Shown here one piece after another: positions 5,811 to 40,007 of a stretch of DNA of 40,313 nucleotides. The first letter of the stretch is position 1, and every line of letters starts with the position of its first letter. The notes under the pieces were generated by a model. The model was not told the origin of the DNA. It did no database searches and saw only the letters and a program-made list of their open reading frames with translations. The position numbers and the translations under genes were made by a program. Source of the DNA: an uncultured Actinomycetota bacterium (GTDB lineage Bacteria; Actinomycetota; Humimicrobiia; Humimicrobiales; Humimicrobiaceae); contig CAYZJW010000003.1 in the NCBI GenBank assembly GCA_964478985.1, positions 1 through 40,313 of the forward strand, given 5' to 3'.

Positions 5811-5819
5811 ATGAACTCC

Positions 5820-6767: not shown

Positions 6768-6801
6768 ATGCCGTCCTCTCTCAAAGTAGATACATCATTA
6801 A

Positions 6802-7719: not shown

Positions 7720-7756
7720 CTGACTAATTTCCTTCCTGCCTGTCTGGCTTTAAACA

Positions 7757-7783: not shown

Positions 7784-7800
7784 CTATAACCGACTTCTAA

Positions 7801-10939: not shown

Positions 10940-10979
10940 CTTAAATCTCCTCCCTTTATTTCTAAAAAAGACTTCCCTG

Positions 10980-11969
10980 TCATTCATTCTTAAGAGCATC
11001 ATCAAAAGCGCCGGAGGCAGGATTTATATTTATATGCTTTACAAAGTCACATGCTTCAGATGCCCCCCTCATCCTGTCCATCCCCGAGTCCTCCCATTCC
11101 ACAGACAGGGGGCCCTCATAACCTATCTGGTTTAGCTCCCTTATTACTGCTCCGAAATCAACCTGGCCCCTTCCCGGTGAACGGAAGTTCCAGCCCCTCC
11201 TGGTATCACCGAACTCTATGTGGGAACCCAGTATTCCGTTAAGGCCGTCAAGTGTCACCGAGGCATCCTTTATATGCACGTGATATACCCTGTCAGGAAG
11301 AGCTCTTATCATAAGGTGGGGTTTTAATCCCTGCCACAAAAGGTGGCTGGGATCAAAGTTTATGCCCAGTGTCTCTCTGCCTTCAAAAGCATTTAGCAGC
11401 CTTTCAAAGGTATAGTAGTCAAAGGCGATCTCCGTGGGGTGCACCTCAAATGCAAATTTGATATCCATTTTGTCCATCTCATCAAAAAGAGGCGTCCATC
11501 TTTTAACAATGGAGGCAAAACCCTCCTCTATCATCTCTTCTGATGCCGGGGGGAACGAATACCAATAGTTCCATATAGGGGAGCCCAGAAATCCGGTGAT
11601 TATACTGATGTCCAGGTTCTTGGCTGCCGTTATGGTATCCTTTACCTCCTGGACTGCCCATTTCCTCATTGCCTCTTCGTCTCCGGCTACAGCAGAAGGG
11701 GCAAAGCCGTTATGGCGGCTGTCGTAGACATCCCCTACCAGCTGACCGGAAAGGTGGGCTGATATAGCCCAGCTGCCAAGCCCGTGCTTTTTAAGAATGT
11801 CTTTTATTTCCCTGGCATAGGACTTGTCCCGGGCAGCTTTTTGGGCATTTATATGCTTGCCCCAGGTAGCAAGCTCAAGACCCTCATAACCCATCTTTTG
11901 CGCAGAAGCGCACATCTCGTCAAATGGTATGTCAGCAAACTGGCCGGTAAATAGTGTTACTGCTCTCAT
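10980..11969 (-). CDS. sugar phosphate isomerase/epimerase (xylose-isomerase-like TIM barrel), partner of the adjacent dehydrogenase
   Basis: 329 aa: YEGLELATWG...KFAFEVHPTEIAFD...NFDPSHLLWQG...HVHIKD...SVEWED (E/D/H/E ligand pattern). TAGGAGGG SD. Separated by 40 nt from the Gfo/Idh/MocA gene. Confidence 0.85.
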   Translation of the reverse strand: MRAVTLFTGQFADIPFDEMCASAQKMGYEGLELATWGKHINAQKAARDKSYAREIKDILKKHGLGSWAISAHLSGQLVGDVYDSRHNGFAPSAVAGDEEAMRKWAVQEVKDTITAAKNLDISIITGFLGSPIWNYWYSFPPASEEMIEEGFASIVKRWTPLFDEMDKMDIKFAFEVHPTEIAFDYYTFERLLNAFEGRETLGINFDPSHLLWQGLKPHLMIRALPDRVYHVHIKDASVTLDGLNGILGSHIEFGDTRRGWNFRSPGRGQVDFGAVIRELNQIGYEGPLSVEWEDSGMDRMRGASEACDFVKHININPASGAFDDALKNE

Positions 11970-12034
11970 CTTATGACCCTCCTATCATAAAATATTAATA
12001 GTATTATTTTAGCAATAGAAAGTATTGCAGTCTA

Positions 12035-13282
12035 CTATGTGAGCTTGAATTTAAGCCTGCCTTCCTTTTCTCTGACTTCCTTCAATCTCTGTGCTGCTTC
12101 CCTGTTGTGGACAACGCAGCCCACTGCCTTTTGCCTTATGAGAAGTTCTATGCAGTTGTCGCAGGCAATACACCAGTCAATGTCCTCTTGCTGGCCGGAA
12201 AGCAGTTTATTGGGTAAGTATGGATCAGCAAGCGTCTGCCTTCCTATAGCTATCATATCACATACGCCATCATTAATATTCTTATTTCCCCAGTAAGTAA
12301 GTGATTTCTTTTCTCTGGGAACCTTTGGCTGCAGATTATTATCGCCATCCCTGAAAATAGAATATGCCGAGCCGATTACAACAGTTTCCGGGGAGACATT
12401 ATCGCTTACAGTTTTCTGAAAGGTATGATGCAGGTATACCTGGTCTGGTATCCTTCTGTCAGGCTGCGAAAGTGCAAGGGTGATAGAGGGGCATCCAGCT
12501 GAGACAATTATGTAATCTGCTCCTCTTTCTTCAAGTCCTTTTACAAGAGCAATCGGTTCGGTATTATCCATGACTGCCGTATCAGGTCCTGCCGATCCAA
12601 ATCCGCCGGGAAAGCCTTCCCAGAAAGATATCTTTGAGCCAATAATAAATCCGGGATCATCGATCTCCTTTTTCACCCTTTCATAACCTTCAAAGACAAA
12701 CCTGGTGCGGTTCTCAAAAGATCCGCCGTATTTCCACTTTCTGTCATTATACGGCCTGAGCAGCTGGGTGCCCAGATATCCGTGGCAGATCTTAATATCT
12801 ACACCATCCGCACCGCATTCATGAGCAATTTTAGCTCCCAGCACAAATTGGTCCAGGATCATTTCTATGTCTTTTTCACTGAGCAGTTCACCGCCAAAAT
12901 CCGCATGCGGCTTAACCGTGACCCTCTTGGAAAAATCCGGATGGCTTATTTCGCCGGAATGTGTCAATTGCCAGATAAAGACAGCTCTGTCATTTATCTT
13001 TTTCATCTCTTCTGTAAATTTCTTAAGAGCTTTTTCATTTTCAGGCATCACGCTGAGCTGGTTTAGCCTGCCCCGGCTTTCCCTGGTAACAGTTATTGCT
13101 TCCAGGTCTATCAGTCCTGCTCCACCCTCAAAGTATCTGGCATACCTTTCATAAGTCCTTTTTGTCGGATTCCCTTCATCATCGGCATCATTGCATTCCA
13201 TGGCATTCAGGGCTATGCGGTTGGGGGCTGTAAGGTTGCCTATTTTTATAGGAGTTAAGAGTTCTTCTTTTTTATTAGTCAT
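12035..13282 (-). CDS. Old Yellow Enzyme-type NADH:flavin oxidoreductase domain with C-terminal 4Fe-4S motif (FadH/enoate-reductase clade, lacking the NAD(P)H domain)
   Basis: CHGYLGTQLLRPYNDRKWKYGGSFENRTRF matches the OYE core motif. CIACDNCIELLIRQKAVGC is CxxCxxC-x11-C. The protein ends 26 aa later. TAGGAGGG SD. Confidence 0.85.
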   Translation of the reverse strand: MTNKKEELLTPIKIGNLTAPNRIALNAMECNDADDEGNPTKRTYERYARYFEGGAGLIDLEAITVTRESRGRLNQLSVMPENEKALKKFTEEMKKINDRAVFIWQLTHSGEISHPDFSKRVTVKPHADFGGELLSEKDIEMILDQFVLGAKIAHECGADGVDIKICHGYLGTQLLRPYNDRKWKYGGSFENRTRFVFEGYERVKKEIDDPGFIIGSKISFWEGFPGGFGSAGPDTAVMDNTEPIALVKGLEERGADYIIVSAGCPSITLALSQPDRRIPDQVYLHHTFQKTVSDNVSPETVVIGSAYSIFRDGDNNLQPKVPREKKSLTYWGNKNINDGVCDMIAIGRQTLADPYLPNKLLSGQQEDIDWCIACDNCIELLIRQKAVGCVVHNREAAQRLKEVREKEGRLKFKLT

Positions 13283-15709: not shown

Positions 15710-15713
15710 AACA

Positions 15714-16080
<367 letters not shown>

Positions 16081-20385: not shown

Positions 20386-23300
20386 TTATTGTCCTTTTCT
20401 AGTAAGGTAGTCTATCATTGGCTGGGTGACCAGAGGCACCAGGTCCTTTATCATATGGGGCATAAGGTTATCCATTACCTCAGGCATCAGTTCCGGCATC
20501 TGCTCTTTCATATATTCAGGCATGGGTATCATCTTTCCCACCCTGTCCAGTATCACCGGCATTAGCCCGGGCATCATCCTGGGAAGGAGTATGGGAAAAA
20601 GTATGGGAAACATGGGTTTCATAAGCTTTAGGGCTCCCGGTATCCTGCCCATTGTCCTCATCATGCTGCCCATCTTAAAGGGCATGGCATCCATAAGCTC
20701 AGGCCACATGGAGGCCATAAGGTCCGCAAATCCTCTGGGACTCATAAGGGCGATCATGGCTTCAAAAACAGCCCACTGCCTCTGGACCTCGGGATCCGGG
20801 TCTTCAAATTCATATCCCAGGGCCTGGCAGGCAAAATTAGCCAAATCTATTATCTCAACCGGGAGGTGCTTTTTTTCAGCTGTCACCCTGAACTGGAACT
20901 CGCAGCAGGGGCACAGGGCAAGTACCTTTTCCGCCCCTGCTTCCACTGCTTCATCAAGCCTTTCCTTTCCCACCTCTGCCGCTACCGGCGGATCTTTTAT
21001 AAGTGTCAGGACACTGCCGCAGCAGTGAGCCTCATCCCTGATATTTTCCATCTCCACCAATTCTACACCGGGTATGGCTTTAATAAGCTCCCTGGGCTCA
21101 TCATAGACCCCGGACACCCTGCCAATATGGCAGGAATCGTGCCAGGTGACCTTAACCGGTTTCCTGCCATTCCCATTTCCGGGGAAGACAAATTCCTTTG
21201 ATCTTATCTTTTCTGCCACCAGTTCAGAGTAGTGCCTGGCCTTTATATCATATTCTATACCCAGTTTTCTTGCCCATTCCGGATAGACATGGCGCCACAT
21301 CATATCGCATGCAGGACAGGATGATATTACCGTATCTGCCCCCGCATCCTTTACTGCCTGTATGTTCTTCTTGATGGTATCGGCAAATACATCCCATTTA
21401 CCGGCTACCAGCATGGGCGTGCCGCAGCAGTTTTCCTTTTCTCCCAGTATGGTAAACTCCACCCCCGCCTCGTCAAGCAGCCTTACACCCGCCTTTCCGA
21501 TATCCTTCTCTACATAACTGGCAGTACAGCCGGCAAAATAGACATTCTTTGCTTTCTTTCCGGGACCATGTTTTTCCGTCAAGTCTTCCGGAAACCAGTC
21601 TATACGGTTCTTTCGGTAGCCGGCCCAGATATCTCCCTGGCTGGTAAGAGCTGCCGCCATCATCTCAAATGGGGGTATGGTCATCTTCTTTTGTTTATGT
21701 ATAAGCTGTCCCCTCATCTTGAGCCAGGAAGGCTCTATGGGTAGATTGGCCGAACATCTGAGATTGCATAGCTCGCATGTGGTGCAGGCCATAAATGCAT
21801 CGACCATATACTGGTCCCATTTTTCCCTTCCTTCAAGGTATTCCCTTAGCCAGTACCATCTTCCCCTGGGACTCTGGCTTTCCCACCCCCTGCCGTAGAA
21901 CTGGTCGCATTCAGGTACGCAGTAACCGCACTGGGAACAGGCATAGGCATACCATGCAACATCCCCGGGGATGCCTTTTATCTCTTTTTGCGGTATCCTT
22001 TCACCAAGTTCATGGGTGATCCTGTTTCCAAAAGGCCTTATTAGGGGCTCCATAAGGCTGGCGATCCCCATAAGCCTGCCTACGGTATTTCTATCTATGA
22101 CCTTTCCCGGGTTCAGTATGCCCTGCGGGTCGGCTTCTTTCTTAAGCGACCTTATTCTTTCCAGACGGTTTCTTCCCAGGACCCTATCTGCCATATTTGA
22201 AAAATATATACCGGTGGCATAAGGCCTTCCCCCATATTTACGGGCTATCTTTATTATTGAAAGAGTGAGGGCAAATACGAAATTATAACTGAATTTTCTC
22301 TGGTCGCTGGGAATAAACCCCAGAAGCACCACTTCCGGTTTCCCGTTCCTTCCTTTTTTTATTACTACTCCTTCCTTTACCAGGGGCTGTTCGATCTTGG
22401 TCTCTATTTCAGAAAGGACCTTGCCCAGGTTTTCCAGGGGGACTATTACTTCAGCAGGCACCAGGCTGGGCCCAAGCCTTTTTACCACCATGAGCTTAAA
22501 CCTGTTTTTCCATTCATGCTCAGCCAGCCTGTCTTCAAGGAGCTTGCCCCCGGAATCTGCAATCAGTCCGGGAAGCTTATCCATAACTTTTCTTTCATCG
22601 CTCTTCCTGAATGTAAGGGTGACAATATATTTTTCCGGAAGTATTAACCTTTCTTCTGCTGCATGTCCGCCATGCTCCATAAGGGGAGCCTGGTTTTTTA
22701 ACTGGGCCATCCTGGGATTTATAAACAGGAGTGACCATATAGGCACTGCATCCTTTATAAGCGATGCGGAGAATTCCTGGAGGTCTGATGATGAATCAAA
22801 GGCAGCCGATATAACTTTCATCTCTTCCAGGGGCATCACTTTTATGGTCATCTGGCTTATCATGCCGGTGATCCCCTCTGCATCGGCGATAAGTCCCAGT
22901 TCGTCACCTTCAAATTCTTTTATGCTTCCGTCAGCCAGGACTATCCTGGCACTTATAACGCTTTCCCTGAATTCTCCCGCCTCATATGAACCTATGCCAG
23001 AGCCTCCATGCGCCAGCCAGCCCCCTGCAGTGGATCCGGGATAGCTGGATGGATAAAGCCTGAGTGTAAGAGACTGTTTTTTAAGCTTTTTATCCAGTCT
23101 TTCCCATATTATGCCGGGCTGTATGGTGACTGTCATAGCATCAGTGTCTAAATCTATTATTTTATCCATCCTGTTAAAATCTACTACTATACCCTGCCTT
23201 ACTGGAAGAACGCCGCCATAGCCTGAGGTAGCTTTTCCTCTGGGTGTAAGCGGTATTTTGTTTTTAGAAGCCCATGCACATAATTCACCCAGCTCTTCTT

Positions 23301-23475
23301 CGGAATTCGGCTGGACTACAGCATCGGGAAGGGTATTCCCGATAAAGGGCCTGACCAGAGAAGGTACGGTAGCTATATCATGTCCGTATAATTTTCTTTC
23401 CGTCCTGTTAAAACATACCCTGTCTTCAAATCTGTCTTCCAGGTACTTTCGGTGTTGACGGGTAAAACTGCTCAT
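20386..23475 (-). CDS. FAD-binding oxidase (GlcD-like) fused to a 2x[4Fe-4S] + two CCG-domain (GlcF/HdrD-like) module, with a C-terminal Met/Pro-rich tail
   Basis: N-terminal PCMH-type FAD domain (PLTPRGKATSGYGGVLP). CSQCGYCVPEC and CTTCELCNLRC ferredoxin motifs. CCG motifs YFAGCTASY...NCCGTP and WHDSCHIGR...HCCGS. Tail of about 130 aa with about 24 Met. AGGAGG SD. Confidence 0.85.
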   Translation of the reverse strand: MSSFTRQHRKYLEDRFEDRVCFNRTERKLYGHDIATVPSLVRPFIGNTLPDAVVQPNSEEELGELCAWASKNKIPLTPRGKATSGYGGVLPVRQGIVVDFNRMDKIIDLDTDAMTVTIQPGIIWERLDKKLKKQSLTLRLYPSSYPGSTAGGWLAHGGSGIGSYEAGEFRESVISARIVLADGSIKEFEGDELGLIADAEGITGMISQMTIKVMPLEEMKVISAAFDSSSDLQEFSASLIKDAVPIWSLLFINPRMAQLKNQAPLMEHGGHAAEERLILPEKYIVTLTFRKSDERKVMDKLPGLIADSGGKLLEDRLAEHEWKNRFKLMVVKRLGPSLVPAEVIVPLENLGKVLSEIETKIEQPLVKEGVVIKKGRNGKPEVVLLGFIPSDQRKFSYNFVFALTLSIIKIARKYGGRPYATGIYFSNMADRVLGRNRLERIRSLKKEADPQGILNPGKVIDRNTVGRLMGIASLMEPLIRPFGNRITHELGERIPQKEIKGIPGDVAWYAYACSQCGYCVPECDQFYGRGWESQSPRGRWYWLREYLEGREKWDQYMVDAFMACTTCELCNLRCSANLPIEPSWLKMRGQLIHKQKKMTIPPFEMMAAALTSQGDIWAGYRKNRIDWFPEDLTEKHGPGKKAKNVYFAGCTASYVEKDIGKAGVRLLDEAGVEFTILGEKENCCGTPMLVAGKWDVFADTIKKNIQAVKDAGADTVISSCPACDMMWRHVYPEWARKLGIEYDIKARHYSELVAEKIRSKEFVFPGNGNGRKPVKVTWHDSCHIGRVSGVYDEPRELIKAIPGVELVEMENIRDEAHCCGSVLTLIKDPPVAAEVGKERLDEAVEAGAEKVLALCPCCEFQFRVTAEKKHLPVEIIDLANFACQALGYEFEDPDPEVQRQWAVFEAMIALMSPRGFADLMASMWPELMDAMPFKMGSMMRTMGRIPGALKLMKPMFPILFPILLPRMMPGLMPVILDRVGKMIPMPEYMKEQMPELMPEVMDNLMPHMIKDLVPLVTQPMIDYLTRKGQ

Positions 23476-24086: not shown

Positions 24087-24119
24087 TTGATTTCAAAATG
24101 GTGGGCCCACCAGGACTTG
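24087..24119. repeat. direct repeat copy 2, overlapping the genuine tRNA 3' end
   Basis: Identical 33-mer. Positions 24099-24119 are the T-arm 3' strand, acceptor 3' strand and CCA of the tRNA. Confidence 0.9.
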
Positions 24120-24175
24120 AACCTGGGACCTCCGCATTATGAGTGCGCTGCTCTAACCAACTGAGCTATGGGCCC
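24099..24175 (-). tRNA. tRNA with CAU anticodon (elongator Met or lysidine-dependent Ile2; CCA encoded)
   Basis: The minus strand folds as a 77-nt cloverleaf: GGGCCCA UA GCUC AGUUGGUUA GAGC A GCGCA CUCAUAA UGCGG AGGUC CCAGG UUCAAGU CCUGG UGGGCCC ACCA. G1-C72 and A31-U39 argue against an initiator. The T-arm and variable loop resemble E. coli ileX. Confidence 0.95.
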
Positions 24176-26676: not shown

Positions 26677-27633
26677 ATGAAACTTAATAATAGGATTGAT
26701 AGATTAACTGATATACTTGAAAACTGCACCCTGTGCCCCCATAAGTGCGGGGCTGACAGGACTTCAGGTGAAAAAGGATTCTGCGGTGCCGGAAAGGATA
26801 TGGTAATATCAGCGGCCATGCCGCATCATGGGGAAGAACCGCCTGTTTCAGGTACCGGAGGCTCAGGTACCATATTCTTCTCCTACTGTAATATGAGATG
26901 CTGTTACTGCCAGAATTACCAGATCAGCCAGGAGCACAAGGGCTATGTCATAAGCCCCCTGGCGCTGGCAGAAAAGATGGTGATGCTTAAAGAGCACGGA
27001 GTGCATAATATAAACCTGGTATCACCTTCAGTTTGGGTTCCCGGGATAACCAGGGCCCTTGAGATTGCGGCAGATTCCGGGCTGGACCTCCCTATTGTCT
27101 ACAATACCGGCGGTTATGACCGTCCTTCTATTTTGAGGATGCTTGAGGGGCTGATCGATATATATATGCCCGACATGCGTTACAGCAGCGATTCTATGGC
27201 AAAAAAGTATTCTTCGGTCGATGATTATGTGAGCTGCAACCGGGAGAGCGTTTCCGAGATGTACAGGCAGGTAGGTCCCCTGAAGCTGGATAAATACGGT
27301 ATTGCCCGAAAGGGCCTGCTTATAAGGCTGCTGGTACTGCCCGGAGATATTTCCGGGACAAAGGCCACGCTGGAATTTATCAGTAAAAAACTTTCCCCGG
27401 ATGTCTATTTAAGCATAATGGCCCAGTATCATCCTGCTTTCAGGGCACATGATCTCCCTGAACTTTCCCGCCGGGTGACCGCTGATGAGTATAAGGATGT
27501 GCTGGAATATGCAGCCGGACTTGGCTTTAAGCGCGGGTGGTCCCAGGACCATGAGGGACTTGATCCGGATAAGGATTATTTTATACCCGATTTTGGTGAT
27601 GAGGATGTCTTCAGGTATTATAGGGACAGCTAG
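26677..27633 (+). CDS. radical SAM protein, PflX type (pyruvate formate-lyase activase-related, COG1313-like)
   Basis: N-terminal CTLCPHKCGADRTSGEKGFCG plus the radical SAM CxxxCxxC motif (CNMRCCYC). Confidence 0.85.
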   Translation: MKLNNRIDRLTDILENCTLCPHKCGADRTSGEKGFCGAGKDMVISAAMPHHGEEPPVSGTGGSGTIFFSYCNMRCCYCQNYQISQEHKGYVISPLALAEKMVMLKEHGVHNINLVSPSVWVPGITRALEIAADSGLDLPIVYNTGGYDRPSILRMLEGLIDIYMPDMRYSSDSMAKKYSSVDDYVSCNRESVSEMYRQVGPLKLDKYGIARKGLLIRLLVLPGDISGTKATLEFISKKLSPDVYLSIMAQYHPAFRAHDLPELSRRVTADEYKDVLEYAAGLGFKRGWSQDHEGLDPDKDYFIPDFGDEDVFRYYRDS

Positions 27634-27638
27634 CCGGC

Positions 27639-29399
27639 TTATCTTTCCCGGCGCCAGGACATAAGTTCATCATATGACATAGTGTTTAGTATATCTTTGG
27701 CCTCCAGGCCCGCCCGCCTGGCTACATCCACCCCCAGCCGGATCATCTCCATATTGCCGGGCCGGTGTGAATCGGTATTTATAGCCAGTTTTGCTCCTGC
27801 TTCCGCAGCTTTGCAGGCATATTCCTCATCCAGGTCCAGCCTCATATAATAGCTGTTTATCTCCAGGGCTTTTCTGTGATCTGCAGCCGCTTCTATCACT
27901 TTTTCCATATCCATAAATATGGGAGCCCTGTTGCCGAAAACTATTCCGGTGGGATGGGCTAAAAGATCAAAGAACCCTTTTTCCAGGGCGCTTACTGCCA
28001 TTAAAGTATTCTGGCGGACAGAATTTAAGAAACTGGAATGCAGGGATGCTATGGCTATATCCATTTTTCTGATAATATCCGGGTCATAATCAAAAACACC
28101 AGGTTTTTTGATATCTATTTCCGAACCCATAAGGATACTTATATCCCTGTATTTTTTCCTGAGAGCGCTGATAAATCTCATCTTCTCCATAAGTCTTTCC
28201 CTGTCCAGGCCGTTTCCGTAATAATTACTCGGGGAATGGTCTGATATGGCAATATACTGGTAGCCCATTTTTCTGGCCGAATCGATCATCTGAGAATAAT
28301 CCATGAGCCCGTCACTCCAGTTTGAATGTATATGGAGGTCGCCCATAATATCGCTGACACTTACCAGGCTCGGCAGCTTTTTTTGGGATGCCCGCAGCAC
28401 TTCGTTTTTTCCTTGTCTTAGCTCCGGAGGTATATGATCCAGCCCCAGAGCATCATATATCCTTTTTTCTGATGCCAGTTCCCGTATAGTGCAGCCGTTT
28501 AAACCAGGCCTGCCTTCTTTGAAAGAATGCTCCTGGAGAGCGGCCAGGTGATCCCTGCTGCCGGTAGTCTTTAAGAGCTGCCAGGCCCAGGTATTTCCGG
28601 CAGCGATTATGATCTCGATGTCAAATTCATATATAGTGCTAAAAAGAGCGCTGATATCCTCCGCTGTCCTTTTTACCGACACCAGCTTTCGCATAAAAGG
28701 ATATGCGGCTATCTTTTTAATAAGAGCCTCGCTTCTTTCCATATCATACCTGTCCCGGTTAAAAACAGGCTGGAGCAAAAGATCTACATCGCCTATGAAA
28801 CTTTTTTTGCGCCTTATGGAACCAGTATATTCTATCCTTTCTACCTCGGATGATCTTTTTAACTGCTCTATGATGATGCCCGCATAGAACTCTGCCGGCC
28901 ACCTGGGAATCATTTTCCTTATGGAATCAAGATATTCTATGGACCGCTTTATCCTTTCTGCAAATAAAGGATTCAGCACATCCTTTCCCAGCTTTGAGGA
29001 AGCAGCAGTACCTGCAGCGTCTCTTTCCATAAAAACGCTTTTCAGGTCTTCCAGGTCCTTTATGGAAAATTCTTTATAGATGGAAAGGACCCTTTTTCTT
29101 CCCATTCCCGTCATCCTTATAAGCCTGACCAGGTCCTGGGAATAGTCTGCAGAAAATCTCCGGTACTTCTCTATTGAGCCATTATCAAGGTATTCAGTGA
29201 TCAGCCCATAACAATAATTGTCTATTCCGCTGGAGCTCCCGGGACTTTTCCCCTTAAGTATTTCCTCTATTATGCCGGGGTCATCCCGCAGGGTCCTGGC
29301 CGCCCTCATAAGCGAAAGCACCGCTTCTTTTCCCCCGGTCTCTGATTTTTGTGCCCCGGCAAGATTGGTAAATATGTCTGCCAGTTTAAGGCTTATCAT
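27639..29399 (-). CDS. family X DNA polymerase with PHP domain, divergent paralogue (PolX-1)
   Basis: GSIRRKKSFIGDVDLLL (dNTP/Asp-x-Asp), FDIEII, and an intact PHP domain (GDLHIHSNWSDG, ISDHS, GSEIDI, SLHS, LAHP, NTDSH). The N-terminal HhH motifs are degenerate compared with 31310-33031. Confidence 0.85.
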   Translation of the reverse strand: MISLKLADIFTNLAGAQKSETGGKEAVLSLMRAARTLRDDPGIIEEILKGKSPGSSSGIDNYCYGLITEYLDNGSIEKYRRFSADYSQDLVRLIRMTGMGRKRVLSIYKEFSIKDLEDLKSVFMERDAAGTAASSKLGKDVLNPLFAERIKRSIEYLDSIRKMIPRWPAEFYAGIIIEQLKRSSEVERIEYTGSIRRKKSFIGDVDLLLQPVFNRDRYDMERSEALIKKIAAYPFMRKLVSVKRTAEDISALFSTIYEFDIEIIIAAGNTWAWQLLKTTGSRDHLAALQEHSFKEGRPGLNGCTIRELASEKRIYDALGLDHIPPELRQGKNEVLRASQKKLPSLVSVSDIMGDLHIHSNWSDGLMDYSQMIDSARKMGYQYIAISDHSPSNYYGNGLDRERLMEKMRFISALRKKYRDISILMGSEIDIKKPGVFDYDPDIIRKMDIAIASLHSSFLNSVRQNTLMAVSALEKGFFDLLAHPTGIVFGNRAPIFMDMEKVIEAAADHRKALEINSYYMRLDLDEEYACKAAEAGAKLAINTDSHRPGNMEMIRLGVDVARRAGLEAKDILNTMSYDELMSWRRER

Positions 29400-29420
29400 G
29401 GTAAATCCAATAATCCTTTG

Positions 29421-29429
29421 TGATATAAT
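29421..29429 (+). promoter_or_regulatory. extended -10 promoter element (TGaTATAAT) for the pcm operon
   Basis: Perfect TGnTATAAT on the plus strand, 73 nt upstream of the pcm ATG. Confidence 0.45.
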
Positions 29430-29436
29430 ATATAGT

Positions 29437-29454
29437 GCTGGGATTTATCCCAGC
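29437..29454. promoter_or_regulatory. perfect 7-4-7 inverted repeat in the polX-1/pcm divergent region (operator or 5' stem-loop candidate)
   Basis: GCTGGGA-ttta-TCCCAGC. A second 5-bp repeat, CCCTG-ttaaat-CAGGG, lies at 29463-29478. Confidence 0.35.
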
Positions 29455-29479
29455 TGGAATATCCCTGTTAAATCAGGGT

Positions 29480-29488
29480 ATTATAACA
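29480..29488 (-). promoter_or_regulatory. extended -10 promoter element (TGtTATAAT) for polX-1
   Basis: Perfect TGnTATAAT on the minus strand, about 80 nt upstream of the polX-1 ATG at 29399. Confidence 0.45.
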
Positions 29489-29501
29489 AAAAAAAGATTA
29501 T

Positions 29502-30167
29502 ATGAAAAAAAACCCGGATCCAGGCACAAATGGTTTCGATCTCTACCGGCAGGCCAGGGAAGACATGGTCAAAAGACAGCTGGAATCCCGAGGGATAAGG
29601 CATCCAGGAGTCCTTGGGGCTATGAGGAAAGTCCCCAGAGAATCATTTGTCCCGGAAGGTCTTCGGGGTTCTGCCTATGAGGACCGCCCCCTGCCCATAG
29701 GTATGGGACAGACCATATCACAGCCCTATATAGTAGCCCTTATGACTGAGTCGCTGGACCTTGATTGCAGCATGGATGTGCTTGAAGTAGGTACAGGTTC
29801 CGGATACCAGACTGCAATACTGGCCGAGCTGTCAAATATGGTATATTCGGTTGAAATAAAGAAAGACCTGTGTGATAAGAATGAAGAAGTCCTAAAAGGT
29901 TATGAAAATATCAGGCTTTCCTGCCATGACGGCAGTAAGGGCTGGGAAAAATATTCCCCCTATGACCGTATACTGGTAACTGCAGCACCGCCTCACATAC
30001 CGGATAAGCTTGTGGAACAGCTTAAGGCAGGCGGCATCATGGTGATACCCACAGGCACATCTACCTGGAGCCAGGAACTTTTAAAAGTGGTAAAATCCGA
30101 TAAGGGGATAAAGAAAATAAAGATATGCGATGTGGCTTTCGTTCCCCTCACTGGAGATACAGGATGA
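29502..30167 (+). CDS. pcm: protein-L-isoaspartate O-methyltransferase
   Basis: VPRESFVPE, PIGMGQTISQPYIVALMTE, VLEVGTGSGYQTAILAEL, ILVTAAPPHIP. There is no SD at the annotated ATG; an internal ATG (MVKRQLE) is an alternative start. Confidence 0.9.
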   Translation: MKKNPDPGTNGFDLYRQAREDMVKRQLESRGIRHPGVLGAMRKVPRESFVPEGLRGSAYEDRPLPIGMGQTISQPYIVALMTESLDLDCSMDVLEVGTGSGYQTAILAELSNMVYSVEIKKDLCDKNEEVLKGYENIRLSCHDGSKGWEKYSPYDRILVTAAPPHIPDKLVEQLKAGGIMVIPTGTSTWSQELLKVVKSDKGIKKIKICDVAFVPLTGDTG

Positions 30168-30218
30168 ATTTAGAAAAGATGACAGAATGTTTAAACACAA
30201 TATTTTATTAAAAGGATA

Positions 30219-31307
30219 ATGAGAACCGGTACTGTAAACCTGCCCCTGCACGGCGGAAAAGCCCCCAGGTGGCTTTTTAACCATATGAAGGACCTCTCCC
30301 GGGAGATATTGTCATCTATCGTATCCGAATATGGTCCGGAAGAAGTGCTGGACCGTCTATCCGACCCCTTCTGGTTCCAGGCTTTCGGCTGCGTTCTGGG
30401 CTTTGACTGGCATTCCAGCGGAGTGACCACAACCGTTTGCGGTGCCGTTAAGGAAGCGGTAAAGGGCAGGGAAAAGGATTTTGGCCTGTTTGTAGCCGGC
30501 GGAAAAGGCGGCACCTCCAGGAAGACGCCCTCAGAGATAGAGGCTGCCGGCGAGAAGATGGGCCTTGACTTCTCCAGCCTGGTATATAACAGTAAGATTG
30601 TAGCCAAGGTAGACTCCACTGCATTGCAGGATGACTACCAGCTCTATCACCACTGTTTTTTATTTACCCTGAGCGGCAAAAAATGGTCTGTGATCCAGCA
30701 GGGCATGAATGAGTACAACCGTATGGCCAGGAGATACCACTGGTCCAGCAGCGAGATAGAAGATCTTGTATGCGAGCCCCATAAGGCCATATGCTGCGAC
30801 TCCAGCGGTGATGTCATAAACCTGGTAGCCAGGGAAAGCAGCAAAGTCCGCAGCACCATGACCGAAATATCATATCAGAAGCCCCGGCTGCTCCTGGATG
30901 ACCTTAAAAAAATAAAGAAATACCAGGAGGCAAAATACAATATGCCCGCAAGGCATACCATAAACTTAAGCGATGTGGAAGTAAAAAGGCTGGAAAAGAT
31001 CTTTATTTCCACCTATGAGACAAGACCTGAGAATTTTGAAAAGCTTATCTCCCTCAAGGGAATGGGCCCCAAGACTGTAAGGTCGCTTGCCCTGATATCA
31101 GAACTGGTATATGGAGAAAAATATAGCATAAAGGACCCGGTAAGGTTCAGCTTTGCCCATGGGGGAAAGGATGGAATCCCCTACCCGGTGGACCGTGAGA
31201 CCTATACAGCTTCTGTGGATATACTGCATAATGCACTAAGGGAAAGCAGGATAGGCAGGACCGATAAAATAAAAGCCATAAAAAGGCTTTCACATTTTTA
31301 CGGATAA
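30219..31307 (+). CDS. conserved protein of unknown function, DUF763-like, with a C-terminal helix-hairpin-helix motif
   Basis: The N-terminus TGTVNLPLHGGKAPRWLF...FWFQAFGCVLGFDWHSSGVTT matches my memory of DUF763 proteins. LISLKGMGPKTVRSLALISELVYG (nt 31044-31112) fits the HhH consensus. The stop lies 2 nt before the polX ATG. Confidence 0.7.
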   Translation: MRTGTVNLPLHGGKAPRWLFNHMKDLSREILSSIVSEYGPEEVLDRLSDPFWFQAFGCVLGFDWHSSGVTTTVCGAVKEAVKGREKDFGLFVAGGKGGTSRKTPSEIEAAGEKMGLDFSSLVYNSKIVAKVDSTALQDDYQLYHHCFLFTLSGKKWSVIQQGMNEYNRMARRYHWSSSEIEDLVCEPHKAICCDSSGDVINLVARESSKVRSTMTEISYQKPRLLLDDLKKIKKYQEAKYNMPARHTINLSDVEVKRLEKIFISTYETRPENFEKLISLKGMGPKTVRSLALISELVYGEKYSIKDPVRFSFAHGGKDGIPYPVDRETYTASVDILHNALRESRIGRTDKIKAIKRLSHFYG

Positions 31308-31309
31308 TA

Positions 31310-33031
31310 ATGGATAAGAAAGACGTTGTAAGGATACTTGACCAGACTGCTACCCTGCTGGAGCTGGGAGGCGCTGATTTCTTCAAGGTACGGGCCTACA
31401 GGGGAGCATCCAGGGCCCTGGAGTCTTCTGGCATGGAGACTGATATCAACACAAAAGCAAAAGACCTGCAGGCGACAAAAGGCATAGGAAAAAACATTGC
31501 CGGCCATATTGTCGAGCTCATCTCAAACGGTACATTTGCAGAATATGAGCGGCTCAAGGCCTCTACCCCGCCGGGACTTCTGGTCATGCTGAGGATACCT
31601 GGCATGGGCGCCAAAAAGGTTAAATACCTTTTTGATAATCTGGGCATATCCGATATGGAGACACTGGAGCAGGCCTGCCTGGAAAACAGGCTGTCTGTGC
31701 TGCCCGGCTTCGGAAAAAAGACCCAGGATAATATTCTAAAAGGCATACATGCAGTAAAGAGATACCAGCAGAAGTTCCTTTATAGCCAGGTAATAGGCCA
31801 GGCAGAGTTAATACTGGAGAAATTAAGGAAGGGCGGGTCCGTAATAAGGGCCAGCCTGGCAGGAAGTCTGAGGCGGAAGAAGGAGATAATAAAGGACATA
31901 GATATAGTTGCCTCAACCGGTGAGCCGGAAATGGTGATGGAACTCTTTACCGGCCTGGATGATGTCGAGGATGTCATCGCCAGGGGAAGCACCAGATCCA
32001 GCATCAGGCTTGCCAGTGGCATAAATGCAGATATAAGGACGGTAGAGGATTGGCAGTTTCCATATGCCCTGCATCATTTTACCGGCAGCAGGGAGCATAA
32101 TACTGCCATGCGGTCCCTGTCAAAGAAGTCCGGCATAAGGATGAATGAATACGGCCTGTTTAAAGGCAAAGAACTTATTAAATGCAAAAGCGAGAAAGAT
32201 ATTTTCGGGGTATTCGGCATGCAGTATATACCTCCGGAGCTGAGGGAAAATCATGGTGAGGTAGAAGCAGCCCAAAAAGGCCAGCTGCCTGCCCTGGTAG
32301 AGCCGAGCGATATAAAGGGAATAATACACATCCACACCACCTATAGTGACGGTAAGATGACTCTGGAGCAGGCGGCAAGAAAAGCCATGGATATGGGATT
32401 TTCTTATATCGGGATAAGCGAGCACAGCCGTTCCGCCAGATATGCCGGGGGATTGAAAGAAGAAGATATTGATAACTATCTTACCGAGATCGACAGGCTT
32501 AATGAAAAGCTTGAAGGTTTTAGGGTATTTAAAGGCATAGAATCTGATATATTAAATGACGGAAGCCTTGATTATGATGACCGGACACTGGAAAGATTTG
32601 ATTTTGTCATAATTGCCATCCATTCCAATTTCAATATGTCCAAAAATGATATGACAAAAAGGATAATAAAGGCTTTGCAGCATCCCTATGCTTCCATCCT
32701 TGCCCACCCCACCGGAAGGCTGCTTCTTGCCCGCGACCCTTATGAGGTGGATATGGAAAAAATAATAGACGCAGCCGCTCAGAGCAATGTAGACCTGGAG
32801 CTAAACAGCAGCCCCTTCCGCCTGGATCTTGACTGGCGTTATGGCAGATATGCAAAACAAAAGGGCGTAAAGGTCTTTATAGATCCTGATGCCCACACGC
32901 TGGACGGCCTTTATGACTACAGTTTCGGAGTAAATATTGCCCGCAAGGGGTGGCTGGAGGCAAAGGACATCGCCAATACCATGGATGCCGGTAAAATGGC
33001 GGATTATCTGGAAAATAAAAGGAAAGGATAA
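31310..33031 (+). CDS. polX: family X DNA polymerase / 3'-5' exonuclease with PHP domain (canonical PolX)
   Basis: KVRAYRGASRAL; three HhH motifs (TKGIGKNIAGHI, IPGMGAKKVKYL, LPGFGKKTQDNI); GSLRRKKEIIKDIDIV; ADIRTV; HHFTGSREHN. PHP motifs HIHTTYSDG, ISEHS, ESDI, AIHS, LAHP, DPDAH. Confidence 0.9.
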   Translation: MDKKDVVRILDQTATLLELGGADFFKVRAYRGASRALESSGMETDINTKAKDLQATKGIGKNIAGHIVELISNGTFAEYERLKASTPPGLLVMLRIPGMGAKKVKYLFDNLGISDMETLEQACLENRLSVLPGFGKKTQDNILKGIHAVKRYQQKFLYSQVIGQAELILEKLRKGGSVIRASLAGSLRRKKEIIKDIDIVASTGEPEMVMELFTGLDDVEDVIARGSTRSSIRLASGINADIRTVEDWQFPYALHHFTGSREHNTAMRSLSKKSGIRMNEYGLFKGKELIKCKSEKDIFGVFGMQYIPPELRENHGEVEAAQKGQLPALVEPSDIKGIIHIHTTYSDGKMTLEQAARKAMDMGFSYIGISEHSRSARYAGGLKEEDIDNYLTEIDRLNEKLEGFRVFKGIESDILNDGSLDYDDRTLERFDFVIIAIHSNFNMSKNDMTKRIIKALQHPYASILAHPTGRLLLARDPYEVDMEKIIDAAAQSNVDLELNSSPFRLDLDWRYGRYAKQKGVKVFIDPDAHTLDGLYDYSFGVNIARKGWLEAKDIANTMDAGKMADYLENKRKG

Positions 33032-33043
33032 GGAAGAAAGAAA

Positions 33044-33697
33044 ATGAACAATATCTTTAAACCGGCTATAGAAAATATTGACAGGATAGTGAAAACACTG
33101 GAAGACACCTACCCGGATGCCCTCCGTTCCACCCTGGACCATAAGGATGCTTTCCAGCTCCTGGTGTCTACCATACTGGCTGCCCAGAGCACTGATAAGC
33201 TGGTAAATACCATTACCCCGGACCTGTTTGAAAAGTATAAGGGACCACAGGACTTTGCCGATGCCGACCCCGGGGTCATGGAGCAGGATATAAGGAAGAC
33301 TGGATTTTTCCGCAATAAGACAAAAAGCATAATGGGAGCCGCCCGGGAGATAGTAGAGAGTTTTGAAGGCAGTGTACCCGGCAATATGAAGGACCTCCTG
33401 ACCCTTCCCGGAGTGGGAAGAAAGACGGCCAATGTAGTGCTGGGAGAATGCTTTGGAAAACAGGTCATTGTGGTAGACACCCATATGAAGCGGATATCCC
33501 GTCATATAGGGCTTACCGATAATACTGATCCCGATAAGATAGAATCTGACCTGGCAGGGATAATACCGGAAAAGGCCCGTACAAGCTTTTCGCATAAGAT
33601 AGTCCGGCACGGCAGGACCATATGTATAGCCAGGAGGCCGAAATGCAGCGAGTGCCCTATCCTTAAATATTGCCGTTATGGGCAGGAGAATGCCTGA
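33044..33697 (+). CDS. nth: endonuclease III (HhH-GPD DNA glycosylase/AP lyase with 4Fe-4S cluster)
   Basis: LVSTILAAQSTD, LPGVGRKTANVVL, VDTHMKR, and the cluster loop CIARRPKCSECPILKYC. Confidence 0.92.
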   Translation: MNNIFKPAIENIDRIVKTLEDTYPDALRSTLDHKDAFQLLVSTILAAQSTDKLVNTITPDLFEKYKGPQDFADADPGVMEQDIRKTGFFRNKTKSIMGAAREIVESFEGSVPGNMKDLLTLPGVGRKTANVVLGECFGKQVIVVDTHMKRISRHIGLTDNTDPDKIESDLAGIIPEKARTSFSHKIVRHGRTICIARRPKCSECPILKYCRYGQENA

Positions 33698-36575: not shown

Positions 36576-38930
36576 CTACTTCATCTCTATTACTTTATTA
36601 ACTGTATATTTTCTGGAAAGGCCGGCAATCTCATCTTTTACCGAAAAATATACTATAGACCAGCCCTTATGTGCCAGTTTCTTTAAAACCTTAAACTGGT
36701 TCTCGAGCCTGCGGCTGTCAGATGACAGGAAGGCATCATCTATTATGAAGAACCCCCTTCCCTCCCCCAGCATCTCCTCAGATATGGCTATCCTTATGGA
36801 AAGGAAAAGCTGGTCATATGCTCCTTTGCTAAGTTTTTCTGCAGTAAGGGTATTTCCTCCTGCATCCGCTACTGTCACTTCACCGGCCTGGCTGTCAAAC
36901 CTGACGTCTTTATATTTATTCCCGGTTATGTCTGCGAATATGTCAGAGATCTTAAGTTTTTCAAAAAGTTCCGATACCTTGGTCTCTTCCGTATTTTTTA
37001 TATCCTCAAAAATCCTTATTGCTTCAGCTGCCAGGTTCTGCTGCCGGTCTATCAGCCCTGCAAATCTATTACAGTGATCGACAGCTTCCCGGAGCCTCTC
37101 CAAATTGTTTATCTCGAATGGCCCCAGCCTGTCAAGGTACCGGGGAAGGTCCAGGGCGGCAAACTTTCCCTGGAATCTGTTAAGTTTATCCCTGTGTTCT
37201 TCGAGGCTTATTTTAAGCCTGCCCTCCTTTTCCTCCAGGGCTTCCAGTTCCGACCTTAAGTCTTCCAGCTTCTCCTTACCGGCTTCTTCATCCTCCGGTA
37301 CAGGCTCTCCATCCGGCCTTAAACCGGACAGCTTTTCTTCCCAGGTAGTGATGGCGTCACCGAATCCTTCCGCCATCTCTCCCAGGTCCCTGTCAGGATC
37401 ATATCCAGGGATATCCCCTCCCGGCATCTCCATCAGCGACCTGGCCAGCGACATCATCTCCGAAGCCGCCCTGTTTCTCAGCCGCCTCTTTTCATTGAAC
37501 TGGTTTATATCACTTATGCCAAGACTTCCCATTATCTCTTCCAGTTCCAGCTCATATGACTTTTTATCCCTTATATAATCTTCCAGTGCCGATGATAACT
37601 TTTTATCATCCATTTCCAGCAGTCTTAACTGGTCATCAAGACGGTCCCTTTCACCGGTTTTTTCCCTGTACCCATCATCAAATGCCGCTGCCGCCGGCAG
37701 CACTTCTTCCAGGCCCTCTATCCGGAAACCTATCTTCCTGAACTCGTTTTCCAAAAGTTTTTCTTCAGCAGCAAAATGGCCTGCCTTTATGCCTGCCCGG
37801 TTTACTATGAATACCGCCAGGCCCGCAATAAGTAGGAGTACTGGCAGTATAAAGGAGTATAAAAGACTGCCGGTGGGTATATATACTGCCGGGAAGCTGA
37901 GCGGTGCCAACAGAAGCAGTATTACAGTTATCACCCTGGAAAAGGTCTCCGGCTCCTTTACCTCCTCTGCCTTACGGCGGTTAAATATCTCAAGTTCTGC
38001 CTTCAACCGGTCTATAAGGGCTTTCTTTGATTCAAGCGCATCCAGTTTTCCCTGGACCTGCGCCAGCTTTTCCTCCAGCCCTGTCCTTTGTTTTATATTC
38101 TTTTCCTGGTCGGAAGTAGTGCGGGAGACCCTGCTGCCGAGACTGTCGATATTTATTATAAGCTCTGATATTTTTTCATATTTTGCCTGGCTGAAATCCT
38201 TATGGTCCTTATATATTTTCCACCTGTCCCTGAGGCTCCGGAGGGTTGAACTATTTTTCCTGTATTCCTGCCACTGAAGCGTCCGCAGGCTTTCCTTTAT
38301 TTCCTTCCTGGTACTTTTTATCTTTTGCCTGGCAGTCAACTGTTCCAGTTCCAGGTAATCAAGTTTTTTATCTTCAGATTCCTCTATGTACTCCTTTGCC
38401 TGGCAACTAAGATCTACTGCCAGTGTGCGAAGCTGGCTTATCTTGCCGTATTTTCTGTCATTTGAAAGCCTGGAATCGCTGGAAGGGTTTACCAGCCTTC
38501 CGAAATCCTGTATATAAGACATGATATCTTCTATCTGTTCCAGCCTTAGACCGGTAAGCTTATCGGTTATATTCCTAAAATATCCGCACTCATCCCTCAG
38601 GGTAAGGTCGCTGTCACGGATAATAAAAATATTCCTTAAGTCCATCCCTCCCAGGTCCATATGCCTTTCCAGGCCTTTTCTTATGTCTACTTTCTGCTCT
38701 TTGCCCTTATTGTCCTCAAAAAGTATATATCCTTCCGGCTCCTGGCTGACTCTGTCAATATGTTCAAAATCCCTGGTCTTTCCCTCCAGCAGCATCTTGA
38801 TGACTGCATCTATGGTAAGGGTCTTTCCGGACTCATTAGGGCCCATTATTACCTGCAGTCCGGGACTGATATCAAGTTCCAGGCTGTTTATGGGTCCGTA
38901 CTTTATAATATGTATCTTTTTTATCCTCAT
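36576..38930 (-). CDS. Rad50/SbcC-like AAA ATPase (YhaN-like) with a central two-helix membrane hairpin
   Basis: Walker A GPNESGKT at aa 30-37. Long coiled-coil arms. aa 331-377 (nt 37800-37940) VITVILLLLAPLSFPAVYIPTGSLLYSFILPVLLLIAGLAVFIV are hydrophobic. C-terminal signature and Walker B: LSKGAYDQLFLSIRIA...FFIIDDAFLSSD. No CxxC hook. Confidence 0.8.
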   Translation of the reverse strand: MRIKKIHIIKYGPINSLELDISPGLQVIMGPNESGKTLTIDAVIKMLLEGKTRDFEHIDRVSQEPEGYILFEDNKGKEQKVDIRKGLERHMDLGGMDLRNIFIIRDSDLTLRDECGYFRNITDKLTGLRLEQIEDIMSYIQDFGRLVNPSSDSRLSNDRKYGKISQLRTLAVDLSCQAKEYIEESEDKKLDYLELEQLTARQKIKSTRKEIKESLRTLQWQEYRKNSSTLRSLRDRWKIYKDHKDFSQAKYEKISELIINIDSLGSRVSRTTSDQEKNIKQRTGLEEKLAQVQGKLDALESKKALIDRLKAELEIFNRRKAEEVKEPETFSRVITVILLLLAPLSFPAVYIPTGSLLYSFILPVLLLIAGLAVFIVNRAGIKAGHFAAEEKLLENEFRKIGFRIEGLEEVLPAAAAFDDGYREKTGERDRLDDQLRLLEMDDKKLSSALEDYIRDKKSYELELEEIMGSLGISDINQFNEKRRLRNRAASEMMSLARSLMEMPGGDIPGYDPDRDLGEMAEGFGDAITTWEEKLSGLRPDGEPVPEDEEAGKEKLEDLRSELEALEEKEGRLKISLEEHRDKLNRFQGKFAALDLPRYLDRLGPFEINNLERLREAVDHCNRFAGLIDRQQNLAAEAIRIFEDIKNTEETKVSELFEKLKISDIFADITGNKYKDVRFDSQAGEVTVADAGGNTLTAEKLSKGAYDQLFLSIRIAISEEMLGEGRGFFIIDDAFLSSDSRRLENQFKVLKKLAHKGWSIVYFSVKDEIAGLSRKYTVNKVIEMK

Positions 38931-38933
38931 ATG

Positions 38934-40007
38934 CTACCTGGCTTTTATCTTTGAAAACTGCGATATTACCATCTCTTCCATTTCCTTTTCAAATCCTTCT
39001 TCCAGCCCCGCCTGTTTAAGTCTTTCTTTAAATGCTCCGTACAGGGGGTCTTCCAGTACAGAACTTATATCACGGTACTGTTCCACGACCTCGATTGCCA
39101 TATTCTTTCCCGTATTTTTCTGCACCAGCTTTTTTATGATACCAGCCAATTCCTTCTCGCCAGAGGATATGAATCCGCCCATATTAATGCATATATCAAC
39201 CCTGTGGCCGCTGTATTTTTTTAATGTCTTTTCCAGCTCATTCAATATATCGTATTCCATTCCCGGCGAGAAGCCTATTTCAATATCCTCATAGTAGAAG
39301 GAATCCAGGGGAAGAAATTTTATACTTTCGCTGGAAGGTCTTTCTGTATCCAGAAGCACGGCAGTACGCCTGCCTTTCTCCTTCCTGGAGACAGATACAG
39401 GACTTCCCGGGTAAAGGAAAAGGGTCTTTTCCGAAAGGCGGTTTTCCACAGTCCTGGAATGGAAATGCCCGGCAAACACATAATCAAATCCAATATTTCC
39501 CAGTATCTTCGAATTGACAGGTAGATATGCCTGCTTCTTCTCATCCCCGTATCCGTCATCAGCCAGGTATGGCATGTCAAGAGTGCAGTGTATTACCAGA
39601 ATATTTATTTTTTCTCCGTTAATGCTCCCACTGAGGGGGCCGGCCAGGTCATTGAAAACCTGGTTTGCATATGGGACTGCAGTTATCCTTACTTCTTCGA
39701 AGTCGATGACCTCGAAAGGATGCCGGTTCAGTACTTTGATGCTGTCACCGAAATTCATATCGGCCCTGTATGCATCCATATCATGGTTTCCGGGAATTAC
39801 CATTATGGTAAACGGCAGGGAGGACAGCATCTTTCTAAGCCGGGGCCTTAAGATGTCTGCTTCCTCATTGGAGTCAAACATATCACCGCTAACCACCAGA
39901 AGGGCTGCCTTTTCTTCCTCAGCCTTTGCCAGTAGATCCTGCAATGCTTCCAGGCTTTCCTTTCTTCCGGAGCTTAGATGTATATCTGATGTGTGGATTA
40001 TTCTCAA
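38934..40007 (-). CDS. Mre11/SbcD-like metallophosphoesterase nuclease (YhaO-like)
   Basis: Phosphoesterase motifs in order: HTSDIHL, VVSGDMFD, IPGNHD, LVIHCT, FAGHFH. TTG start 1 nt after the upstream stop; its stop lies 3 nt before the ATPase ATG. Confidence 0.85.
   Translation of the reverse strand: MRIIHTSDIHLSSGRKESLEALQDLLAKAEEEKAALLVVSGDMFDSNEEADILRPRLRKMLSSLPFTIMVIPGNHDMDAYRADMNFGDSIKVLNRHPFEVIDFEEVRITAVPYANQVFNDLAGPLSGSINGEKINILVIHCTLDMPYLADDGYGDEKKQAYLPVNSKILGNIGFDYVFAGHFHSRTVENRLSEKTLFLYPGSPVSVSRKEKGRRTAVLLDTERPSSESIKFLPLDSFYYEDIEIGFSPGMEYDILNELEKTLKKYSGHRVDICINMGGFISSGEKELAGIIKKLVQKNTGKNMAIEVVEQYRDISSVLEDPLYGAFKERLKQAGLEEGFEKEMEEMVISQFSKIKAR

Follow-up and report, generated by a model that had tools for sequence, protein, structure and literature searches.

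The subject of this analysis is a locus of five genes, two of which encode DNA polymerases of family X (PolX), located at positions 27639–33697 of a DNA stretch of 40,313 nucleotides (nt) that is further referred to as the window (contig CAYZJW010000003.1 of the assembly GCA_964478985.1, positions 1–40,313, forward strand). The gene polX-1 (27639–29399, minus strand) codes for a divergent PolX paralogue of 586 amino acids (aa), with a PHP domain match at an E-value of 8.5e-12, and is oriented divergently from a plus-strand run of the four remaining genes, from which it is separated by a 102-nt spacer. The run comprises pcm (29502–30167), encoding a 221-aa protein-L-isoaspartate O-methyltransferase (PF01135, E 2.6e-59), a gene for a 362-aa protein matching PF05559, i.e., DUF763 (30219–31307), polX-2 (31310–33031), encoding a 573-aa canonical bacterial PolX with 8-kDa, polymerase and PHP domains, and nth (33044–33697), encoding a 217-aa endonuclease III. 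According to the open reading frame (ORF) listing, the intergenic gaps within the run are 51, 2, and 12 nt. The coordinates, the divergent polX-1, the gene order and the gaps had already been given in a first-pass annotation, made from the sequence alone, and match that listing exactly.

The gene families named in that annotation were also confirmed, as all of the profile matches were strong, though PolX-1 scored under the cut-off of its profile. Pcm reached 235.3 bits with NF001453 (cut-off 188), and Nth 237.7 bits with TIGR01083 (cut-off 211.7), together with a match to EndIII_4Fe-2S; the translation of nth contains the HhH-GPD lysine within LPGVGRKTA, the aspartate within VDTH, and the cluster motif Cys-x6-Cys-x2-Cys-x5-Cys. 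The DUF763 protein matched PF05559 over profile positions 1–319 of 319 with 453.4 bits (gathering score 35.5, E 5e-136). With NF006375, for which the cut-off is 426 bits, PolX-2 obtained 559.8 and PolX-1 314.1 bits. All five predicted family assignments are strong.

PolX-2 could be aligned end to end with the PolX of Thermus thermophilus (3AU2; 385 bits). It has the catalytic aspartate triad (D196, D198, and D241), the HF steric gate (within HFTGSREHN), N264 as the equivalent of Asn279 of Pol beta, the equivalent of R283, the NEYG motif, a basic residue at the position of Pol beta D276, and all nine PHP metal ligands, aligned to those of PolX-1. In its domains (8-kDa, polymerase, and PHP), triad, gate, Asn279 equivalent and PHP ligands it shows no notable difference from the enzymes of T. 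thermophilus and Bacillus subtilis (YshC), and by these residues PolX-2 is a canonical PolX. Nth and PolX are generally known as partners in base excision repair (BER), and the first-pass suggestion that they are partners here is plausible for a short-patch pair, in which PolX-2 would be the canonical polymerase. As in BER initiated by endonuclease III, with end cleaning by the PHP domain of PolX and gap filling, both components are encoded here, 12 nt apart. The cluster differs from such a pathway in the lack of a ligase or a dedicated apurinic/apyrimidinic (AP) endonuclease gene, in the additional presence of pcm and the DUF763 gene, and in the fact that nth and polX-2 are inconstant members of it among the relatives.

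The second polymerase of the locus is of a different kind. PolX-1 and PolX-2 share only 33% identity, and PolX-1 aligns with 3AU2 at 239 bits. It was stated in the first-pass annotation that both proteins keep the GS(I/L)RRKK motif, the D-x-D motif and all PHP motifs, and this was confirmed: the D-x-D residues are D204/D206 in PolX-1 and D196/D198 in PolX-2, and nine ligands were found in each protein, those of PolX-1 (H356, H358, D363, H388, E427, H454, H482, D543, and H545) being invariant in 30 sequences. The third catalytic aspartate (D260) is present as well, which makes the acidic triad of the window copy complete (D204, D206, and D260). What the annotation missed is the state of the rest of the polymerase half. 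In the Pfam scan of PolX-1 there was no HHH_8 match, the palm match was below the cut-off, and only the PHP and thumb domains were detected. Neither the GFGxK hairpin nor NEYG is present, and Pol beta F272, N279, and R283 have no counterparts; the steric-gate region reads K277/T278, with T278 at the F272 equivalent, and does not qualify as a gate, L285 stands at the N279 equivalent, and E262, two residues past the third aspartate, occupies the place of an arginine in canonical enzymes. PolX-1 thus has the domain layout and the PHP site of canonical PolXs, but the residues of the nucleotide pocket are gone, as are two of the three helix-hairpin-helix motifs.

These features are not peculiar to the window. 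The polymerase half of PolX-1 was searched against 5.8 billion protein clusters, which revealed a clade of about 41 clusters (155–753 bits); below these the scores fall abruptly, canonical PolXs reaching at most 89 bits. Residue-by-residue examination of 25 clade members showed that D-x-D, GSxRRK, the glutamate at the second residue after the third aspartate (arginine in canonical enzymes), and threonine at the F272 equivalent are invariant (25/25 each), and that leucine, isoleucine or phenylalanine takes the N279 equivalent in all of them. The third aspartate is retained in 17 and replaced by asparagine in eight of the 25, and it is a glutamate in two loci of related genomes (L002 and L003). 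The R283 equivalent is not conserved, NEYG and the GFGxK hairpin are absent, GS and the basic residue at the D276 position are retained, and a 9-residue insertion (LPxFNxxxYDF) follows D-x-D. Clade members share 71% identity in the PHP half and 56% in the polymerase half.

Similar proteins have been described as noncanonical PolXs, with the hallmarks of a hydrophobic residue replacing Asn279, loss of the steric gate and an intact PHP domain; enzymes with such substitutions had no polymerase activity and acted as exonucleases only (Prostova et al. 2022, PMC9226535). PolX-1 resembles them in the hydrophobic N279 equivalent, the missing gate motif, the fully kept PHP site, the faster evolution of the polymerase half than of the PHP half, and the presence of a canonical PolX in the same genome. 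The strict definition of the noncanonical group requires that at least one catalytic triad residue be exchanged for a non-acidic one (PMC9226535); the window PolX-1, with its intact D-D-D, is therefore canonical by this definition, whereas the eight clade members with D-D-N fall within the noncanonical group. Further differences from the published proteins are the absence of deletions in the palm and fingers, with the 9-residue insertion after D-x-D instead, the invariant glutamate two residues past the third aspartate, and the separation into a tiny clade of its own, with both paralogues encoded 2 kb apart at one locus. Two PolX genes in one genome were called unusual in the first-pass annotation; such an arrangement is indeed uncommon, but it is already documented, at a frequency of about 2–3% among genomes with PolX: more than one PolX was found in 121 of 6239 PolX-bearing genomes, half of these cases being pairs of a canonical and a noncanonical protein (PMC9226535).

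Taken at the level of sequence, PolX-1 would most likely act only as a nuclease on 3' ends or AP sites and not as a redundant second polymerase, and it is most likely a predicted PHP nuclease of an already described kind that nevertheless forms a new small clade, in which the polymerase site seems to be in an early phase of erosion. A reading in which PolX-1 is instead a nucleotidyl transferase with a remodelled site (D204 and D206, with Glu262 as a shifted third carboxylate), performing, e.g., template-independent or low-fidelity end extension, appears improbable to us. It would account for the invariance of D-x-D and GSxRRK, for Glu262 standing precisely at the canonical arginine position, for the retained GS and basic residue at the D276 position, and for the constraint indicated by 56% identity within the polymerase part, but it has to face the loss of the F272, N279, and R283 equivalents, of NEYG and of the GFGxK hairpin, the asparagine in eight of the 25 members, and the inactivity of the published enzymes with these substitutions as polymerases. 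The nuclease reading of PolX-1 also agrees with a 2026 survey, in which selection across bacterial PolXs was stronger on the PHP than on the polymerase site (PMC12926913): a degenerate PolX that is retained fits the published idea that PHP nuclease, and not DNA synthesis, is the selected function in many bacterial PolXs. The locus thus offers a natural side-by-side pair for biochemical comparison, i.e., a canonical PolX and a PolX with an apparently eroding polymerase site, the triad of which is complete in the window genome and already carries the Asp-to-Asn change in relatives, while in sister genomes only the degenerate copy remains at the locus, the canonical one having been lost from it.

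For the comparison with other genomes, DUF763 loci were scanned with one genome per species, which gave more than 599 loci, and the best 80, coming from many phyla, were analyzed and compared with the window proteins by tblastn; loci L081–L084 were added from an exact-protein look-up and L088 from a metagenome look-up. Among the best 80 of these loci, the island was found only in L001–L006, metagenome-assembled genomes mostly labelled Actinomycetota, and a metagenome scan for relatives of polX-2 indicated one close locus only, L088. The genes that follow DUF763 vary within this set. In the window these are polX-2, nth, and then a minus-strand FGGY kinase gene. Both polX-2 and nth also stand downstream in L002 and L003 (DUF763 71–72% identical) and, past an inserted stretch, in L004 (71%), and polX-2 followed by the contig end was found in L088 (86%). 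In L081–L084 (96%), nth comes at once and is followed by the minus-strand FGGY kinase gene, polX-2 being absent; the junction is clean, with the DUF763 stop codon and the ribosome-binding region of nth intact. L001 (83%) likewise has nth at once and no polX-2, and in L005 and L006 (65–66%) the minus-strand FGGY kinase gene comes at once, without polX-2 and nth. The canonical polymerase gene is thus dispensable at the locus, as it is absent from it in sister genomes retaining polX-1.

The genes polX-1, pcm, and DUF763 were found together in the window, L081–L084, L088, L001, L003, and L006, and also in L002, where a glycosyltransferase gene is inserted between pcm and DUF763; these three genes are the stable core of the cluster. 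PolX-1 is the fastest-evolving and DUF763 the slowest-evolving protein of the set in every comparison (e.g., versus L002: PolX-1 46%, Nth 58%, Pcm and PolX-2 63% each, and DUF763 71% identity). The cluster is genuine, lineage-restricted and variable. The idea of a conserved module, put forward in the first-pass annotation, stands to the extent that the gene order is kept, in part, in L001–L006, L081–L084, and L088, recurring down to 71–72% identity of DUF763, but the order does not extend beyond one lineage, and polX-2 and nth vary within it. Contrary to the combination of DNA and protein repair suggested there, pcm shows no connection in mechanism to the DNA genes; it codes for an ordinary protein-repair methyltransferase, and its position is more readily attributed to stable local synteny than to mechanistic coupling.

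The 102-nt spacer between polX-1 and pcm contains two promoter-like elements read from the sequence. An extended −10 box, TGaTATAAT (29421–29429, plus strand), is directed towards pcm and may be the promoter of the putative pcm-DUF763-polX-2-nth operon; its TATAAT is invariant in an alignment of six related intergenic regions. On the minus strand, a second extended −10 box, TGTTATAAT (29480–29488), is directed towards polX-1 as its putative promoter and belongs to a promoter-like site (29508..29480) with 10 of 12 matches, including TG; the block ATTATAxCA of this region is invariant in the six loci. Between the two boxes lies a perfect 8-nt inverted repeat, GCTGGGAT-TT-ATCCCAGC (29437–29454), a candidate operator or 5' hairpin. 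In L083 the sequence CCGGAAT-TG-ATTCCGG was found at the same place, both arms having changed together, but in L088 and L001 the repeat has no common register, and RNAalifold applied to four loci gave no support for a shared intergenic hairpin. No regulatory RNA was found in the island with Rfam. The polX-1 gene and the pcm run would be transcribed divergently and possibly controlled jointly, and the spacing within the run (gaps of 2 and 12 nt here, 4-nt overlaps between DUF763 and polX-2 in L002 and L003) fits a single transcript.

The DUF763 family comprises 3694 clusters at 50% identity, and it was represented by single-domain proteins in all of the best 150 matches; the window protein is a full-length, high-scoring member with the same architecture. 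Identity across phyla amounts to 50–60%, and 53 alignment columns do not vary among 118 sequences; they include the motifs DWHSSGxTT, GGKG, AKxD, QQ...ARRYxW, and HGGKD. An AlphaFold model based on the 118-sequence alignment had a mean predicted local distance difference test (pLDDT) score of 83, with a core above 93, and a predicted template modelling score of 0.80, whereas an alignment of 20 sequences had given a low-quality model (pLDDT 62) that had no match in PDB. The model consists of an alpha/beta N-terminal domain, a short helix-hairpin-helix (HhH)-like element around GMGPKT, and a poorly modelled FAHGGKDGxPxPVD loop; both this loop and the N-terminal domain are conserved. Foldseek searches with the model retrieved nothing from PDB (best E 0.84) or BFVD (best E 0.18), sequence and profile searches of PDB chains gave nothing significant (best hits: a RidA-like protein, E 0.39, and the HhH of RuvA, E 1.2), and no match to DUF763 was found in the PADLOC and NCBIfam libraries. 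The literature searched for DUF763, PF05559, COG1415, and IPR008482 yielded a domain census from 2005 only, with no function assigned. Two candidate assignments were dropped: a ligase-like nucleotidyl transferase, considered for the AKVD and GGKDG motifs, showed no fold match to ligases, and the cysteines of a presumed four-Cys cluster turned out to be only about 90% conserved.

The genomic neighbourhoods of DUF763 outside the lineage were compared in the 74 other loci of the 80 analyzed, and 133 nearest neighbours were scanned with Pfam. Adjacency of DUF763 to polX, nth, and pcm, one of the checks proposed in the first-pass annotation, was not borne out as a general pattern in these loci: DUF763 adjoins PolX in one and nth in none of the 74 loci of other phyla, and it is mostly a stand-alone gene apart from the window and one Omnitrophota genome, in which it lies directly upstream of polX. 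Pcm occurs within 5 kb of DUF763 in eight of the 80 loci, and outside the lineage only in three WOR-3/Stahlbacteria-type loci, in which the gene immediately upstream of DUF763 is on the opposite strand. The neighbours matched 163 Pfam families, the commonest being Methyltransf_11 and PD-(D/E)XK nuclease (five times each); DAO oxidoreductases, isocitrate/isopropylmalate dehydrogenase, flavodoxin-like proteins, and transporters were also found. In 41 of the 74 loci no same-strand neighbour is present within 60 nt, and on a haloarchaeal plasmid the gene stands alone; this context and the rhizobial one are uninformative.

The exception is locus L060 of an Omnitrophota single-cell genome, where a canonical-type PolX is encoded 2 nt downstream of DUF763. 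The same-strand genes at positions 3951–12190 of this locus code for RNase HII, a 3'-5' exonuclease/WYL protein, YjeF_N, a DAO oxidoreductase, DUF763, PolX, and KsgA, with gaps of 12 and 2 nt flanking DUF763; YjeF_N is an NAD(P)HX epimerase, i.e., a metabolite-repair enzyme. L060 is a true independent recurrence of the DUF763-PolX adjacency. Additionally, in seven Dehalococcoidia loci (L026, L027, L028, L030, L034, L044, and L058) a PD-(D/E)XK nuclease gene is located closely downstream of DUF763 on the same strand; the nuclease of about 440 aa has two tandem Cas4/AddB-like PD-(D/E)XK modules, with a Cys-rich cluster motif at the end of each.

The side upstream of DUF763 shows a recurrence as well. 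A same-strand ORF of about 365–377 aa abuts or overlaps the DUF763 start in four loci labelled Chloroflexi, Dehalococcoidia, Omnitrophota, and Bipolaricaulota (L029, L033, L060, and L064), which is about as often as any DNA-related neighbour recurs. In L060 this ORF is the DAO-family FAD oxidoreductase, and DAO was matched by three of the 133 scanned neighbours.

The weak HhH motif and the translational coupling to polX in two unrelated phyla are the grounds on which the best available guess can be made, namely that DUF763 may be a nucleic-acid-binding enzyme or an accessory factor acting with PolX. The bolder proposal, that it is a DNA-repair enzyme of unseen fold working with PolX in BER, e.g., by first recognizing or processing a lesion, an AP site or a blocked end, is in our opinion doubtful. 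If it were true, the pairing with polX would give a first clue to the function of a widespread archaeal and bacterial family, to which none has been assigned since at least 2005, and a DUF763 protein acting on DNA together with PolX would be a new component of prokaryotic BER; if DUF763 does not act on DNA, the cluster is an ordinary repair neighbourhood. A competing explanation, which we consider somewhat unlikely, is that the gene order was inherited without functional coupling in a slowly rearranging lineage, and that DUF763 works outside DNA repair, e.g., as a metabolic, RNA- or protein-directed enzyme. The heterogeneous neighbours elsewhere, the high proportion of loci without a tightly spaced same-strand neighbour, the uninformative rhizobial and haloarchaeal contexts, the failure of fold and profile searches to match any DNA enzyme, and the positions of the GGDEF, radical SAM, and FGGY kinase genes, kept as well as those of the repair genes, are all in line with it. 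Against it stand the coupling of DUF763 to polX (2 nt or a 4-nt overlap), the independent origin of this adjacency in Omnitrophota, the nuclease neighbours in Dehalococcoidia, and the HhH-like motif, with PF00633 annotated on two homologues. DUF763 is the main residual interest of the locus, as a weak but testable lead.

Considering all of the above, we regard it as modestly probable that the locus is an ordinary, lineage-restricted BER cluster, with a likely pcm-DUF763-polX-2-nth operon, a divergent polX-1 coding for a degenerate, probably nuclease-only PolX, and a DUF763 protein that may act with PolX. In this model, pcm, DUF763, polX-2, and nth would be expressed as one operon, divergently from polX-1, from the region with the two extended −10 promoters. 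Going by what is known of these enzyme families, Nth would excise oxidized pyrimidines and nick the AP site by beta-elimination, the blocked 3' end would be removed by the PHP domain of a PolX, the one-nucleotide gap would be filled by PolX-2, and the nick would be sealed by a ligase encoded elsewhere. The gene identities, the states of the motifs, the spacing, and the distribution and variability of the cluster are observed; that the four genes are co-transcribed, that the two PolXs divide the work between them, and that DUF763 has any part in it is inferred. The first-pass annotation was correct in what it observed, and its interpretation is partly supported.

Several findings weigh against the BER-cluster model. 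The GGDEF/HD-GYP, radical SAM, and FGGY kinase neighbours are as syntenic as the repair genes, so the order shared within the lineage is no sign of selection for a repair module. Scans for promoters and terminators were at background level overall, and a weak terminator-like hairpin of six pairs (31272–31290, plus strand; AAAGCC-loop-GGCTTT followed by a T-rich run) lies within the last DUF763 codons, immediately upstream of polX-2. L083 has the same hairpin, followed there by nth; the element is probably due to chance, though it could attenuate read-through. With three carboxylates and the clade-invariant Glu262, some nucleotidyl-transfer activity of the window PolX-1 is possible. As regards DUF763, its HhH motif (E 0.007–0.016) is below the Pfam thresholds, no constant partner was found across the 74 other loci, the gene is monocistronic on rhizobial megaplasmids, and many of the archaea listed with DUF763 belong to groups where PolX is rare, 288 of 296 archaeal PolXs being euryarchaeal.

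The same evidence bears on the stronger interpretation that the locus is an integrated, co-regulated spontaneous-damage module, in which two active polymerases, Nth, Pcm, and a dedicated DUF763 protein were selected as a unit. The tight spacing, the control region common to both directions, with its conserved −10 boxes and its palindrome, and the persistence of PolX-1, Pcm, and DUF763 together across the relatives speak for it, and the Omnitrophota locus likewise mixes nucleic-acid repair genes with the metabolite-repair gene YjeF_N around DUF763 and PolX. Nevertheless, polX-2 and nth are variably present in the lineage, Pcm is only rarely near DUF763, and in the three cases outside the lineage the gene immediately upstream of DUF763 is on the opposite strand, the deoxynucleotide-pocket residues are gone from PolX-1, and unrelated neighbours are equally syntenic; we therefore find such a module quite unlikely.

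Some features of the flanks of the BER cluster are also worth mentioning. At a distance of 3 kb downstream of nth, the window (36576–40007, minus strand) encodes an SbcC-like ATPase of 784 aa (AAA_23/AAA_15/AAA_27) together with a 357-aa SbcD-like metallophosphoesterase, a further DNA-end-processing pair that is present also in L081–L084. On the other side, a radical SAM gene (26677–27633, plus strand; CxxxCxxC) with weak NrdG2/AmmeMemoRadiSam-like matches is convergent with polX-1 and ends 5 nt from its stop codon, and the same pairing was found in L002, L003, L006, L081–L084, and L088. About 7 kb upstream of polX-1, L081–L084 carry a stand-alone LigD_N (3'-phosphoesterase) gene and a BrkB-like gene, while at the corresponding place of the window (20386–23475, minus strand) there is a gene for a 1029-aa FAD/Fe-S/CCG oxidoreductase, which indicates that the left flank was rearranged between near relatives. 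Finally, a bacterial class A RNase P RNA (302 bits) and a tRNA gene are located in the window at positions 15713–16079 and 24102–24175, respectively, both on the minus strand.

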